This document shows positions 21,163 to 38,676 of a stretch of 64,000 nt of DNA, piece after piece. Made by a program: the position numbers and the translations under genes. Within the stretch, counting starts at the first letter, position 1, and the number at the start of each line of letters is the position of its first letter. Source of the DNA: a virus (Duplodnaviria > Caudoviricetes); IMG/VR virus record IMGVR_UViG_3300032237_000809, positions 61,504 to 125,503 of that record; one strand, 5' to 3'. The notes below the pieces were generated by a model, which saw nothing but the letters and a program-made list of their open reading frames with translations, did not search any database and was not told the DNA's origin.

Positions 21163-22518
21163 ATGAAAAGTTTTTTAAAATTTATAACCGAAGCAAATAG
21201 TAAAGCAGTTCAACAGGCAACTCGTATGGGACTTGTTACTGATGGGCATGGTGGATGGTATAATAAAGCAACAGGAGAATTTACCGCAAAAACTTTTCAA
21301 GGTGCATTAAAATTTTATAATAAAAGACAAATAATTGGTGGAAAAGATCCTGCACAAACTGAACAGGAAAAAAATCTTTCTCAAACATCTTATGCACCTC
21401 AACAACCAATCCCACAAGATCAAGTTCCTGTAGATCAGCAGCAACCAATCCCACAAGATCAAGTTCCTGTAGATCAGCAGCAGATGCAAGAACCAGTTCC
21501 ACAGGAACCATTTTCTCCACCACCAGTCGAAAAAACTTTAGGAACTTTGACGATTGCTTTTGGTCGCTTTAATCCACCAACCATAGGTCATCTTCAGTTA
21601 ATGGATACTGCTGCTGCATCTGCAGAACAAGATCAGAGTGACTATATTATTGTTCCTTCTCGTACTCAAGATGCAAAGAAAAATCCTTTGGATGCTGATA
21701 CAAAAATCTATTATATAAGAAAAATGTTTCCTCAACATAGTGAGAGGATTTATAATGATGTAAATTTAAGAACTATTTTTGATGTTCTCAAAAAGGCTCA
21801 TAATGATGGATATTCAAGCGTAAGAATTGTTGGTGGATCTGATAGGGTAAAAGAATTTGATAAATTGGCAAATAATTATAATGGAAATCTTTATCAATTT
21901 GATAATATTGACGTAATTTCTTCTGGAGATAGAGATCCTGATTCTGAAGGAGTTGAAGGAGTTTCTGCATCAAGAATGAGACTTGCAGCTGCTGAAGGAG
22001 ATTTTAAAACTTTTCGTATGGGACTTCCTCCTGAAGTTTCTAGAAAGGATGCAATAGAACTTTTTGATGTTCTTCGTCAATCTATGGGAATTGAGCAAAT
22101 ACAAGAAGAAGGTTATTATGTTTGGGAAATTGCTCCTAAATTTGATCTAAATTCTCTTCGTGAAAATTATATTTCAGAGAAAATTTTCCAGATTGGACAA
22201 TTAGTTGAGAATATGAATACGGGTCTTGTTGGGCGCATTATTCGTAGGGGAACTAATTATTTGATTTGTGTGACTGAAGGTGGAATGATGTTTAAATCCT
22301 GGATTAAGGATATGATGGAAACAAAGAAATATACAGAAGTTATGATGGATAGTGAAATGAGAGAACCAGGAAAACCAAATACGTTAGTTGGAACTCTTGG
22401 TGCATTTAAGAATTATGCGAGCAAAACTCCAGGTGCTATTGGAACTGGCGCAGAGAATTTACAACCGGGTGGAAATGCTTATGGTATTAATTTCATAAAT
22501 AGATTTAGAAAAAAGTAA
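21163..22518 (+). CDS. Cytidyltransferase-like protein with capsid-targeting-like N-terminus
   Basis: FGRFNPPTIGH (HxGH-type), VGGSDR, SASRMR; MKSFLKFITEA. Confidence 0.8.
   Translation: MKSFLKFITEANSKAVQQATRMGLVTDGHGGWYNKATGEFTAKTFQGALKFYNKRQIIGGKDPAQTEQEKNLSQTSYAPQQPIPQDQVPVDQQQPIPQDQVPVDQQQMQEPVPQEPFSPPPVEKTLGTLTIAFGRFNPPTIGHLQLMDTAAASAEQDQSDYIIVPSRTQDAKKNPLDADTKIYYIRKMFPQHSERIYNDVNLRTIFDVLKKAHNDGYSSVRIVGGSDRVKEFDKLANNYNGNLYQFDNIDVISSGDRDPDSEGVEGVSASRMRLAAAEGDFKTFRMGLPPEVSRKDAIELFDVLRQSMGIEQIQEEGYYVWEIAPKFDLNSLRENYISEKIFQIGQLVENMNTGLVGRIIRRGTNYLICVTEGGMMFKSWIKDMMETKKYTEVMMDSEMREPGKPNTLVGTLGAFKNYASKTPGAIGTGAENLQPGGNAYGINFINRFRKK
21403..21480 (+). repeat. Perfect 39-bp tandem duplication (QPIPQDQVPVDQQ x2)
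   Basis: 21403-21441 = 21442-21480, in frame. Confidence 0.9.
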
Positions 22519-33853: not shown

Positions 33854-33961
33854 TTACTGAGATTATAACATAATCTAAGGGGGCTTGACAAGTCCTCTTT
33901 TTTTATGTAGACTAGGTTTGTCCCGGTTGAAGATAAATAATAACTCATAAGATTACTTAAA

Positions 33962-34411
33962 ATGAGTTATGAAAATCCTTGGATATATCAAGGAGAAATA
34001 TTTGAATCAAATCATATAGGAAATTATTTTGGTTTTGTTTATCTTATATCCTGTAAGACCACCGGTAGAAAATATATTGGACGTAAGTATCTATGGTCAT
34101 TCAGAACTCCACCTGGAAAAAAAAGAAAAGTAAAATCGGAGTCTGATTGGAAAAAATATTATGGATCTTGTCCAGAATTAAAAGAAGATGTGAATAAGTA
34201 CGGTAAAGAGTTTTTCAGTAGAGAAATAATAAGTCTTCATAAAACCAAGGGTAAATGTAATTTTGAAGAAACACGGCAATTATTCCTAAATAATGTGCTG
34301 ACCGAAGCACTTGACACTGGAGAACCTGCATACTACAATTCGCAAATTTTAAGTCGTTATTTTAGGAAAGATTACTTTCATAAAGGATATGTTGCTAAAA
34401 TTATTGATTAA
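33962..34411 (+). CDS. GIY-YIG nuclease (endonuclease II/Seg-like)
   Basis: GFVY...KYIGRK, YYGS, E...L, YN. Confidence 0.8.
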   Translation: MSYENPWIYQGEIFESNHIGNYFGFVYLISCKTTGRKYIGRKYLWSFRTPPGKKRKVKSESDWKKYYGSCPELKEDVNKYGKEFFSREIISLHKTKGKCNFEETRQLFLNNVLTEALDTGEPAYYNSQILSRYFRKDYFHKGYVAKIID

Positions 34412-34447: not shown

Positions 34448-34633
34448 ATGGTTACACTTGAAACCACGCTTCGTAAATCACATGATTGGGCAATCGATAG
34501 AATTCACTTTCTAAGTGAACAAGAAGAATATGAAGATGCTCATGCAATTCAATCTGAATTTAATGAATGGTTGAATCCATATATTTCAGAACATGATATT
34601 TTTTCATTAACATATCTAGGAGAAAAAAAATGA
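34448..34633 (+). CDS. Hypothetical protein
   Basis: 61-aa ORF overlapping next start. Confidence 0.55.
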   Translation: MVTLETTLRKSHDWAIDRIHFLSEQEEYEDAHAIQSEFNEWLNPYISEHDIFSLTYLGEKK

Positions 34634-35334
34634 AAATTGATTTACTAAACTTTTTTGAATATTTTGATTCAAGAAATCCAAAACATGTTGCTGCAGTAGA
34701 GCAATTTGAACAGGACTTGGAGCAAAAACAACCAGATTTAATTCAAGATGAATCTAATTGGGTAAGAATATTCAGACAAAAATTACCAGTTCCACAACAA
34801 TTTGGAGTTCTGTCTGTTCCGTACTATCCTCAAACAGATAACTATCGGGATGCAAGTAGAACTTGCAATTCATCATCTTGTGCAATGTGCCTTGAGTTTT
34901 TTAAACCAGGCACATTAAAAGGAGAAAAAGGTGATGATGATTATATCCGAAAAGTATTTTCAATCGGTGATACAACGGATCATGCAGTTCAAACTAAAGT
35001 TCTTGCTTCTTATGGCGTTGAATCCGAATTTAGTTACACTTTGGGATTTTCTGATTTAGATAATAGTTTATCTGCCGGAAAACCAGTTGTAATTGGTATA
35101 CTTCACAGAGGACCATTATCTGCTCCTACTGGTGGTCATATGATAGTAGTAATTGGTAAAAAAGGTGAGGATTATGTTGTAAATGATCCTTATGGAAGTT
35201 TAAATGATGGATATACCGGTGCCGTATCTAATGGTAAAGGTGCTGTATATAAAAAATCTGAACTTACTCAAAGATGGTTAGATCACGGTAAAGATAAGAC
35301 TGGTTGGGGGAGAATCTTTCAATCAAAAAAGTAG
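34630..35334 (+). CDS. C39-like cysteine peptidase (lysin); N-terminal part of predicted frameshift fusion
   Basis: VPYYPQ...TCNSSSCAM, GGHMIVVIG, VNDPYG. Confidence 0.85.
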   Translation: MKIDLLNFFEYFDSRNPKHVAAVEQFEQDLEQKQPDLIQDESNWVRIFRQKLPVPQQFGVLSVPYYPQTDNYRDASRTCNSSSCAMCLEFFKPGTLKGEKGDDDYIRKVFSIGDTTDHAVQTKVLASYGVESEFSYTLGFSDLDNSLSAGKPVVIGILHRGPLSAPTGGHMIVVIGKKGEDYVVNDPYGSLNDGYTGAVSNGKGAVYKKSELTQRWLDHGKDKTGWGRIFQSKK

Positions 35335-35825
35335 AAAGTTCTATTCCTATTGAAAGAGTCTCTAAAGGAATAGAACTGATTAAACAATTTGAGGGATGTA
35401 GTTTATATGCCTATAATGATCCTCTTACAGGAGGATTACCAATTACTATTGGTTGGGGAAGCACTAAAAGTTTGACTGGAAAACCTCTTAAACTTGGTGA
35501 CAAATTGACTCAGAATGAAGCAGATTTATTATTGTTACAACATATAAAAACTGAATTTCTTCCTTCTTTAAAAAATATTCCTTATTGGAATGAGATGAAT
35601 GAAGAAATGCAGTCTGCACTTTTAAGTTTTAGTTATAATTTAGGAGCAGTATTTTATGGCAGTAGTGGATTTAATACCATTACAAAACTATTAGCGGAAA
35701 AGAAATGGAATGAAATTCCAGAAGCACTCAAAATGTATAGAAATCCTGGAACTTCGGTTGAACTTGGATTGCTTCGCAGAAGAACTGCTGAAGGTAAATT
35801 GTGGGAAGACGGTTTAAAAAAATAA
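35304..35825 (+). CDS. GH24 lysozyme domain in the -1 frame
   Basis: LIKQFEG..AYND...TIGWG, ALLSFSYNLG, GLLRRRTAE..LW; no ATG before the catalytic Glu. Confidence 0.85.
   Translation: MGENLSIKKVESSIPIERVSKGIELIKQFEGCSLYAYNDPLTGGLPITIGWGSTKSLTGKPLKLGDKLTQNEADLLLLQHIKTEFLPSLKNIPYWNEMNEEMQSALLSFSYNLGAVFYGSSGFNTITKLLAEKKWNEIPEALKMYRNPGTSVELGLLRRRTAEGKLWEDGLKK
35307..35377 (+). promoter_or_regulatory. Programmed -1 ribosomal frameshift signal
   Basis: GGGGAG 35307-12; A_AAA_AAG 35325-31 before TAG; stem AGTTCTATTCCT (35337-48) / AGGAATAGAACT (35366-77). Confidence 0.8.
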
Positions 35826-35859
35826 TTAAATAAATAATAGTAGATTTACCGAGGATATT

Positions 35860-36048
35860 ATGACTACTCTCACTCTCGCCACACTTGCAGTAAAAGGACT
35901 TAGCGCAGCAAATTTTCAACTTTTTCTTGCTGCTCTTTTAGCAGTATCTGAGGTTCTTGGAGCAGATCCAAGAATTAAGGCAAATGGAATTGTATCATTT
36001 GTTCTTATTCAAGTTCAAAACTTTCTCAAGTCCAAAGAAACCAAGTGA
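35860..36048 (+). CDS. Small membrane protein, holin candidate
   Basis: Hydrophobic segments, basic C-tail, directly after lysin. Confidence 0.45.
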   Translation: MTTLTLATLAVKGLSAANFQLFLAALLAVSEVLGADPRIKANGIVSFVLIQVQNFLKSKETK

Positions 36049-36093
36049 TCTTTAAATAGGTTCAATTTTAAGAGGGGAGAAATCCCCTCTTTT

Positions 36094-36815: not shown

Positions 36816-36970
36816 CAAATTCTAAATACTAGATTATTATTTGCAAATCCCTGTTATGAGCAGGGTACTCGTTATGAGTCTTTGATTTGAAACCTAGAGC
36901 CGTGGAAGGTGCCTCCCGAGAGGATTGGTGTACCCCCCTTTTATACGGATGTCGAATTCTATTAAAACTA

Positions 36971-37627
36971 ATGCAAAAATGCTTTACAACTGTAGCCGTT
37001 TCTCTTATTGGAGCGGTTGCAACTTCAGTGGCAACGATGCCAACACCGAGTCTCGCAAGTTCTTCTAATCTACAACCGCCATTTGCGATTGTTCCAGAAG
37101 TGCCCGTAACTCAGGAGACAGCGACCAGACTGGTTGTTCCCGAAAAACCAAAAGAAACCCGGTATATTTGTAAGGGATGTAATGAAACAGAATCCCGTGC
37201 TCTTGCTTTTATGCAGGACAAGGGAATCAAAGATAAAAATGCCCTTGCCACTATCATGGGTAATATTAAACAAGAGTCTACTTTTGTTTCTAATATCTGT
37301 GAAGGTGGTGCTAGAACCTCTTACCGAGGTTGTAGAAGTGGTGGTTATGGAATCATTCAATGGACTTCTATCGATCGATATGAAGGTCTTGGTGAACATG
37401 CTGCCCGTATTAAAGGTGATCCTTCTACCATTGAAACCCAATTAGATTACATGCTTCATGAATATGATTGGAAAATGATTGAGGATGGAATGAAAACCCC
37501 AGGAAAATCAATTACTGATTATATGCGTCTTGCTCAAAAATGGATCCGATGGGGACACCATGGAGCAAGAACTAACTTTGCTTATAACTACTCTAAAAAG
37601 TTAGTTTTGAGTGAGATTAATTCTTGA
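36971..37627 (+). CDS. Secreted phage tail-lysozyme-family muramidase
   Basis: Signal-peptide-like N-terminus; IMGNIKQES, GYGIIQWT...R, QLDY. Confidence 0.75.
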   Translation: MQKCFTTVAVSLIGAVATSVATMPTPSLASSSNLQPPFAIVPEVPVTQETATRLVVPEKPKETRYICKGCNETESRALAFMQDKGIKDKNALATIMGNIKQESTFVSNICEGGARTSYRGCRSGGYGIIQWTSIDRYEGLGEHAARIKGDPSTIETQLDYMLHEYDWKMIEDGMKTPGKSITDYMRLAQKWIRWGHHGARTNFAYNYSKKLVLSEINS

Positions 37628-38480: not shown

Positions 38481-38553
38481 GGGTCAATAACTCAGATGGT
38501 AGAGTAGCGGGCTTTTAACCTGTAAGTCGTGAGTTCGATCCTCACTTGACCCA
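38481..38553 (+). tRNA. tRNA-Lys(UUU)
   Basis: GGGTCAA/TTGACCC, loop CTTTTAA. Confidence 0.92.
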
Positions 38554-38676
38554 CTTGCCGTGGTTCAAAACTTTATATAAGATCCAGTGGGGCACTTATT
38601 TAAAGGTTTGATTTAGATTCACACTCACGCGGTAACCCATTGACAATCAGATCCAGAAATGATATGATTGTCTCAT

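Follow-up and report, generated by a model that had tools for sequence, protein, structure and literature searches.

How does a phage translate a lysozyme whose reading frame has no ATG before the catalytic residue? This question is raised by a locus in a 64,000-nucleotide stretch of viral DNA (the window), where the gene of a C39-like cysteine peptidase is followed, in the -1 frame, by a GH24 lysozyme. The earlier note on this DNA had located the peptidase, a slippery heptamer, a GGGGAG motif, a stem and the lysozyme frame, and had named TTG 35304 as the sole upstream start of the lysozyme, with no ATG before its catalytic Glu. All these coordinates and both statements were confirmed in the sequence; the first ATG of the lysozyme frame comes 68 codons past the catalytic Glu at 35391. 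The arrangement had been explained by a programmed -1 frameshift with two products, and this explanation has now received strong comparative support from an invariant heptamer, a covarying stem, absent starts, natural fusions and mirror layouts.

The peptidase-lysozyme locus and its surroundings

The source record of the window is a 125-kb virus contig (58% complete), and a profile search of this record gave a single GH24 match. As judged from nrdA/nrdB upstream and from the best matches to S-SRM01 and S-PM2, the window is from a T4-like cyanomyovirus, which presumably infects a cyanobacterium. The locus is placed behind nrdA/nrdB and a segE-like gene, and its features are listed in Table 1.

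The peptidase gene ends with TCA AAA AAG TAG and encodes a product of 26.2 kDa, in which an N-terminal module of about 50 amino acids is followed by a Peptidase_C39_2 domain (PF13529, E 2e-12). The presumed triad Cys79/His170/Asp186 was invariant among 44 homologues, and a sequence search against solved structures gave no match. The domain partners of this peptidase are GH24 in phages and, with a weak match, GH19 in filamentous cyanobacteria. In genomes of the latter (L363-L369), the C39-like domain is C-terminal in longer proteins, some of them with a GH19-like segment. PF13529 has been listed among endolysin domains (PMC5017753), and the gene fusions with GH24 and GH19-like domains, together with the annotations, point to the C39-like domain as a putative lysin catalytic domain.

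The -1 frame encodes a 13-aa linker, the catalytic Glu (codon 35391-35393) and a lysozyme that matches PF00959 (E 5e-20) with its Glu-Asp-Thr catalytic region and ends at a TAA stop (35823-35825). It could be aligned to solved GH24 muramidases, e.g. 9kbq, 7m5i and 2anv. The predicted fusion of peptidase and lysozyme has 44.5 kDa. A role in lysis is likely, to which the GH24 family, the late-promoter motif and the fusions of the peptidase point indirectly, and a virion or other envelope role may be an alternative.

Table 1 Features of the peptidase-lysozyme locus, with positions in the window
Feature	Position	Strand	Remarks
T4-type late-promoter motif ATAAATA	33933-33939	+	5' of segE-like endonuclease, 61-aa ORF and peptidase; consensus match only
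C39-like cysteine peptidase gene	34630-35334	+	234 aa; strong RBS before ATG
Predicted 11-bp G-U-rich hairpin	35301-35325	+	would mask both TTG 35304 and the SD-like motif; specific to this genome
TTG in the -1 frame	35304-35306	+	start chosen by gene callers; weak RBS (-3.0 kcal/mol); absent from most relatives
SD-like G-rich motif	35306-35312	+	GGGGAG at 35307-35312, 12 nt before heptamer; Trp-Gly-Arg codons
Slippery heptamer A_AAA_AAG	35325-35331	+	0-frame stop TAG (35332-35334) directly after
-1 frame, linker and GH24 lysozyme	35331-35825	+	C-terminal part of predicted 398-aa trans-frame protein
3' stem-loop, putatively stimulatory	35337-35377	+	12 bp, 35337-35348 with 35366-35377; begins 5 nt after heptamer
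Phage tRNA-Lys(UUU)	38481-38554	+	tRNA species that would slip on A_AAA_AAG; context only

Several further elements surround the locus. The late-promoter consensus of S-PM2 is NATAAATA (PMC2984593). Across the window, 31 of the 35 ATAAATA motifs are on the + strand, many of them right before genes, and T4-type late promoters would show such a strand bias, although in total the motif is no more frequent than by chance. A moderately hydrophobic ORF of 62 aa (35860-36048), which has its own ATAAATA at 35830, stands directly 3' of the lysozyme; it is kept in the close relatives L250-L255 and is a candidate for a holin- or spanin-like role. A terminator-like hairpin was found downstream of the lysozyme at 36070-36091. 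At 1 kb downstream of the lysozyme, there is a second muralytic gene (36887-37627) with a match to Phage_lysozyme2 (PF18013, E 1.5e-14) and a signal-peptide-like N-terminus.

Probable slip site, stem and upstream elements of the junction

Homologous loci were gathered from viral contigs, metagenome contigs and isolate genomes, and their distinct junctions were sorted into classes. The slip class was defined by an in-phase A_AAA_AAG at the peptidase stop or one codon earlier and by a lysozyme in the -1 frame; it comprised 92 distinct junctions, next to 30 in which the lysozyme has its own ATG and no heptamer and about 20 without an adjacent lysozyme. All 92 slip junctions read NNA AAA AAG, and Lys-Lys endings with other codons were not found among them. 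The codon preceding the two lysines was GCA, GTA, ACA, ATA or TCA, and other synonyms were never seen in these junctions. As a background in the same genes, AAA AAG accounted for 14 of 83 Lys-Lys pairs, and A for 31% of comparable third positions. Identity among the peptidases of the slip loci ranges from 69 to 99%, and clustering at 90% gave 48 groups. The distance from the heptamer to the catalytic Glu takes 12 values between 44 and 83 nt, every one of which preserves the -1 frame. We did not accept the heptamer alone as evidence: the ORF at 21163-22518, which served as a negative control, also ends with A_AAA_AAG and a stop, yet it has no stem, and its -1 frame closes after a few codons.

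The stem of the window folds with -16.2 kcal/mol (z -4.0), and one of 200 shuffled sequences was equally good. When the 70 nt after the site were folded, z was below -2 in 42 of 67 slip loci, in none of 14 loci with their own ATG and in 3-4 of 67 flanking controls. The best stem, in a register fitted for each sequence, had at least 8 bp in 85 of the 92 slip loci and at most 7 bp in the 30 ATG loci; in the three loci with both heptamer and ATG (S-SRM01, L063 and L069), stems had only 5-6 bp. Since these registers were fitted per sequence, we placed the weight on the ATG-class control, the register comparison and the covariation within the window's own stem family. In this family (21 sequences, S-PM2 included), 96.5% of cells pair, compared to 27-52% in slid registers. 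Three pairs were changed on both sides (21 cells), which none of 500 shuffles reached, a count that is not a probability because the sequences are related. In a relative with 92% protein identity (L250-L252), the junction is the same and both stem arms are kept, with a different loop. Other loci have unrelated stem sequences, found in three registers. These comparisons indicate that the stem is selected as a structure. Heptamer conservation and stem covariation in homologues had been proposed as checks of the frameshift; the heptamer proved to be present in every distinct slip junction, and the stem covaries and is absent from the ATG-coupled controls.

The earlier note had also counted an SD-like element to the signal. 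Indeed, GGGGAG is present at a suitable spacing and pairs with -8.4 kcal/mol; it is, however, not enriched in slip loci, where the mean pairing energy was -5.9 kcal/mol vs -6.1 kcal/mol in non-slip loci (p=0.06). In the latter, the same G run stands at RBS distance from the ATG. As the run is forced by conserved Trp-Gly codons and pairs equally elsewhere, its selection as a stimulator of the frameshift is not supported. A stimulatory SD is situated 9-14 nt upstream and is optional, being present in about 56% of insertion sequences (PMC5009743); with its fitting distance, the motif may act as a stimulator in this genome. The predicted hairpin over the motif was rejected as a conserved switch, because a comparable fold was found in only 1 of 88 slip loci.

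Taken together, heptamer, stem and frame make programmed -1 frameshifting by the ribosome, as in dnaX and IS3, very probable in the window, in S-PM2 and at some 90 related loci. Having translated the peptidase, ribosomes would be held up by the stem while two tRNA-Lys(UUU) occupy AAA AAG. Those holding the 0 frame would terminate at TAG and release the 234-aa peptidase; those slipping back by one base would read a flexible linker and then the GH24 lysozyme, resulting in a 398-aa peptidase-muramidase. In this way, one late locus of a T4-like cyanophage would give two proteins, which, as supposed in the earlier note, may be made at a fixed ratio. A_AAA_AAG is most slippery where one tRNA-Lys decodes both codons (PMC5009743). 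The tRNA-Lys(UUU) motif found in the window is also present in S-PM2, 2.4 kb behind its junction. On the host side, a pattern search of a CsoS2-positive picocyanobacterial family found this motif in 37 of 46 genomes and a tRNA-like CUU motif in none, a figure for the family as a whole.

The same anatomy is seen in cultured phages. In S-PM2, the peptidase ends with GCA AAA AAG TAA, an 11-bp stem follows, and there is no start for the lysozyme; in RefSeq, its lysozyme (p157) is annotated as starting at a Met that lies 68 codons past the Glu. In S-CAM7 and in two uncultured relatives (L336 and L337), GTT TTT TTT is found instead, i.e. a U_UUU_UUU site, with a stem 6 nt later that differs from those of the A_AAA_AAG loci; the upstream -1 frame is closed and offers no start. 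The S-CAM7 junction is at L165:1450-1500, and its lysin gp246 is annotated from 58 codons after the catalytic Glu onwards. By these features, U_UUU_UUU is a putative second slip site for the same peptidase-lysozyme join. Two PHROG families of about 95-aa 'endolysins' (10457 and 7910) match only the C-terminal half of the lysozyme and are probably truncated annotations of start-less lysozyme frames. In S-CRM01 (g113/g112, L166:1309-2618), the lysozyme itself is split over two overlapping ORFs near its C-terminal YRNPG, and g112 runs into another domain; this split may mark a further site of recoding or simply an error in the sequence.

Fused junctions, the mirror layout and other routes to the lysozyme

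Peptidase and lysozyme also occur as natural in-frame fusions, which form 53 protein clusters; in PHROG 3617, the peptidase match covers residues 1-235 and the lysozyme match residues 248-405. An in-phase A_AAA_AAG was present in 8 of the 25 distinct fused junctions with DNA. In all eight, a stem of 8-13 bp follows at 3-6 nt and the -1 frame is closed after a single codon; their stems are of three different sequences. ACG-2014f gp211 (L164:3214-3245) and two relatives possess a new GGAGGG stem common to 45 isolate records, the L254 fusion (2199-2245) a new 12-bp stem (z -4.9), and L378, L379, L407 and L382 the stem family of the window (L378:905-975; L382:893-955). Except for two groups with one extra A, described below, the other fusions lack a heptamer. 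Since Ser-Glu/Asp codons create a -1-frame stop in some heptamer-free fusions as well, the stop alone carries little weight, and the signal in these fusions is the heptamer plus the stem. In this mirror layout, the 0 frame would yield the fusion and the slip would yield the peptidase with one additional residue, that is, the same pair of products as in the window. The retention of the slip signal in the opposite layout suggests that both proteins are needed.

The mirror loci bear directly on a reading in which the frameshift is real and merely rescues an old indel or holds lysozyme production low, the free peptidase having no selected role. Plain in-frame fusions without any signal (L253, L338-L346, L469-L474) agree with this reading, as do the variants L380/L389 and L383/L385, in which one extra A (A7) encodes the trans-frame junction directly. 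We nevertheless regard it as unlikely: the eight heptamer-bearing fusions need no slip to make the lysozyme, yet they retain the heptamer, the stem and the early -1 stop, two groups of them with new stems, and the thirty relatives with an ATG make both enzymes separately. Another purpose of the slip, to lend the N-terminal module of the peptidase to the lysozyme, was only partly supported. The lysozyme of DSL-LC03 has its own copy of this module (E 1e-20) and that of S-CBS3 a weak one; no significant match was found in the long ATG-class lysozymes, and the module is missing from the short ones.

A slip would be dispensable if the lysozyme were translated separately, either from TTG 35304 or, through translational coupling, from a near-cognate codon at which ribosomes re-initiate once past the peptidase stop. 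The TTG is in frame, and in 30 relatives the lysozyme does start with an ATG at the junction, in most cases within an ATGA overlap; moreover, some ATT, ATC, ATA, TTG or GTG exists within the linker of 75 of the 88 slip loci. The TTG, however, is a by-product of the GGT TGG codons; a counterpart was present in 9 of the 88 slip loci, and a stop usually intervenes between this position and the lysozyme. In 78 of the 92 junctions, a stop one codon upstream of the heptamer closes the -1 frame. No ATG precedes the catalytic Glu in 84 of the 88 slip loci; in 44 heptamer loci, ATG, GTG and TTG are all missing from the stretch between this Glu and the last stop of the -1 frame, and 13 loci have no table-11 start at all before the first conserved helix. 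The near-cognate candidates of the linkers are scattered in position and lie inside the stem. Since independent initiation also leaves the invariant heptamer, the restriction of the stem to loci without ATG and the mirror layout unexplained, we consider it very improbable, and the lysozyme is probably made by way of the slip alone.

Slippage of RNA polymerase on the A6 run is equally improbable in our judgement. By adding one A it would produce an mRNA for the identical 398-aa fusion, and the T8 run of S-CAM7 and the genomic A7 variants (L380, L383) speak for it. The run, though, has just six A and is terminated by G in 92 of 92 junctions, even though a final AAA, the favoured codon for Lys, would make it longer; the stem is 3-8 nt downstream, which is the geometry of a ribosome, and the mirror loci retain the same phase. 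A sequencing or assembly error or a pseudogene, i.e. one ORF broken by the loss of an A from a homopolymer run, as the in-frame fusions might suggest, is practically negligible, as the independent assembly L255 (Logan contig, run ERR2848506) shows no differences over 34630-35825, the break recurs at 92 distinct junctions and also in genomes of isolates, and the lysozyme part differs from that of L250 by 19 synonymous and 8 non-synonymous codons.

The programmed ribosomal frameshift thus explains the junction best. The linkers that it would add are rich in Ser, Thr, Pro and Asn across the slip loci, as is typical of inter-domain linkers.

History of the cassette, related systems and significance

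The two-product design is not universal: many relatives use an ATG of their own, a plain fusion or no adjacent lysozyme. In a quick, unrooted peptidase tree, slip and non-slip loci are interleaved, with 18 changes of state, at least seven of them forced, and the window's peptidase falls in a clade of mostly non-slip genes. In a lysozyme tree of the same kind, the slip state needs seven changes, two of which are forced by strong branches. These trees suggest that cassette and lysozyme module move together, via exchange near the end of the peptidase gene. Given that the loci are related and that only two of the seven changes in the lysozyme tree are forced, the A6G cassette possibly had one origin and has long been maintained. 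The SegE-like GIY-YIG endonuclease (33962-34411) adjoins the peptidase region upstream, and both orientations are seen among close relatives; it could favour module exchange.

The mechanism itself is classical; for a specialist, novelty would lie in the class of gene, in how widespread the design is, in the use of a second slip site and in the mirrored arrangement. In IS3 and IS911, a short upstream protein (OrfA) is accompanied by a trans-frame fusion (OrfAB) that adds the catalytic domain, with an A6G site and a stem. The window resembles these elements in its short protein, in the predicted fusion that would add a catalytic domain and in its A6G plus stem; in contrast to them, the locus does not belong to a mobile element, each of its two parts is a hydrolase domain, and an independent OrfB-like start is mostly missing. 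In dnaX, a stop follows after one -1 codon. This dnaX layout is found in the eight mirror loci, ACG-2014f gp211 among them, whereas in the window the slip would make the long product and the 0 frame ends at once. With the E. coli dnaX tau/gamma system (PMC5009743), the window has in common A_AAA_AAG, a 3' stem-loop and an SD-like motif spaced 9-14 nt from the site; its predicted long and short products would share their N-terminus as tau and gamma do, and its host may likewise have a single tRNA-Lys. It differs in that dnaX encodes a clamp loader and the window putative phage cell-wall enzymes, with an SD motif showing no detectable selection.

Among phage genes, the frameshifts of the tail chaperones G/GT and of capsid genes (lambda, T7, PSA; PMC5009743, PMC10885494) likewise give a short and a C-terminally extended protein through slippage at the gene's 3' end. 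The locus described here belongs to a different gene class, in a T4-like myovirus, outside a tail operon and with a covarying stem; a tail assembly chaperone could be rejected, as the locus is not between tail tube and tape measure genes. Two-product endolysins, namely Ms6 LysA, phiVML3 and CMP1 (PMC3111421), also provide a long and a short protein from one lysis locus. In Ms6 and CMP1, unlike here, in-frame internal starts are used, and the short form is C-terminal (PMC3111421). The phiVML3 lysin, the nearest case in the literature, is described as two overlapping genes, one coding for a lysozyme-like lysin and the other for a small holin-like product, and PRFect cites it as a lysin frameshift. 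The in-frame cyanophage fusions (PHROG 3617; ACG-2014f gp211; S-CREM1 gp9, where the order is reversed) contain the same two domains as the window and are annotated as ordinary single ORFs with no recoding recorded. A literature search, largely without subscription papers, found no frameshift described in a lysis gene, in a cyanophage peptidase-lysozyme or joining two lysin domains, and nothing on the peptidase-lysozyme locus in the literature on S-PM2 and S-CREM1.

For the reference genomes, the immediate consequence is a corrected annotation: S-PM2 p157 and S-CAM7 gp246 are at present annotated as fragments without the catalytic Glu. Host lysis by T4-like cyanophages is poorly known, and the locus supplies a defined lysin, for which a one-base test is possible in cultured pairs, i.e. 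S-PM2 with WH7803, and ACG-2014f for the mirror form. We tentatively put forward, as a possibility and not as our expectation, that many marine and freshwater T4-like cyanophages set the ratio of free peptidase to peptidase-muramidase by slippage, with both products under selection and the dose or timing of lysis under its control. If this is true, selection would have preserved the design in both of the mirrored layouts and with either slip site, and the slip efficiency would respond to tRNA-Lys supply and translation rate in phages without a described lysis timer. The slip at the junction would by itself extend programmed frameshifting in phages beyond tail chaperones and capsids to the enzymes of lysis.
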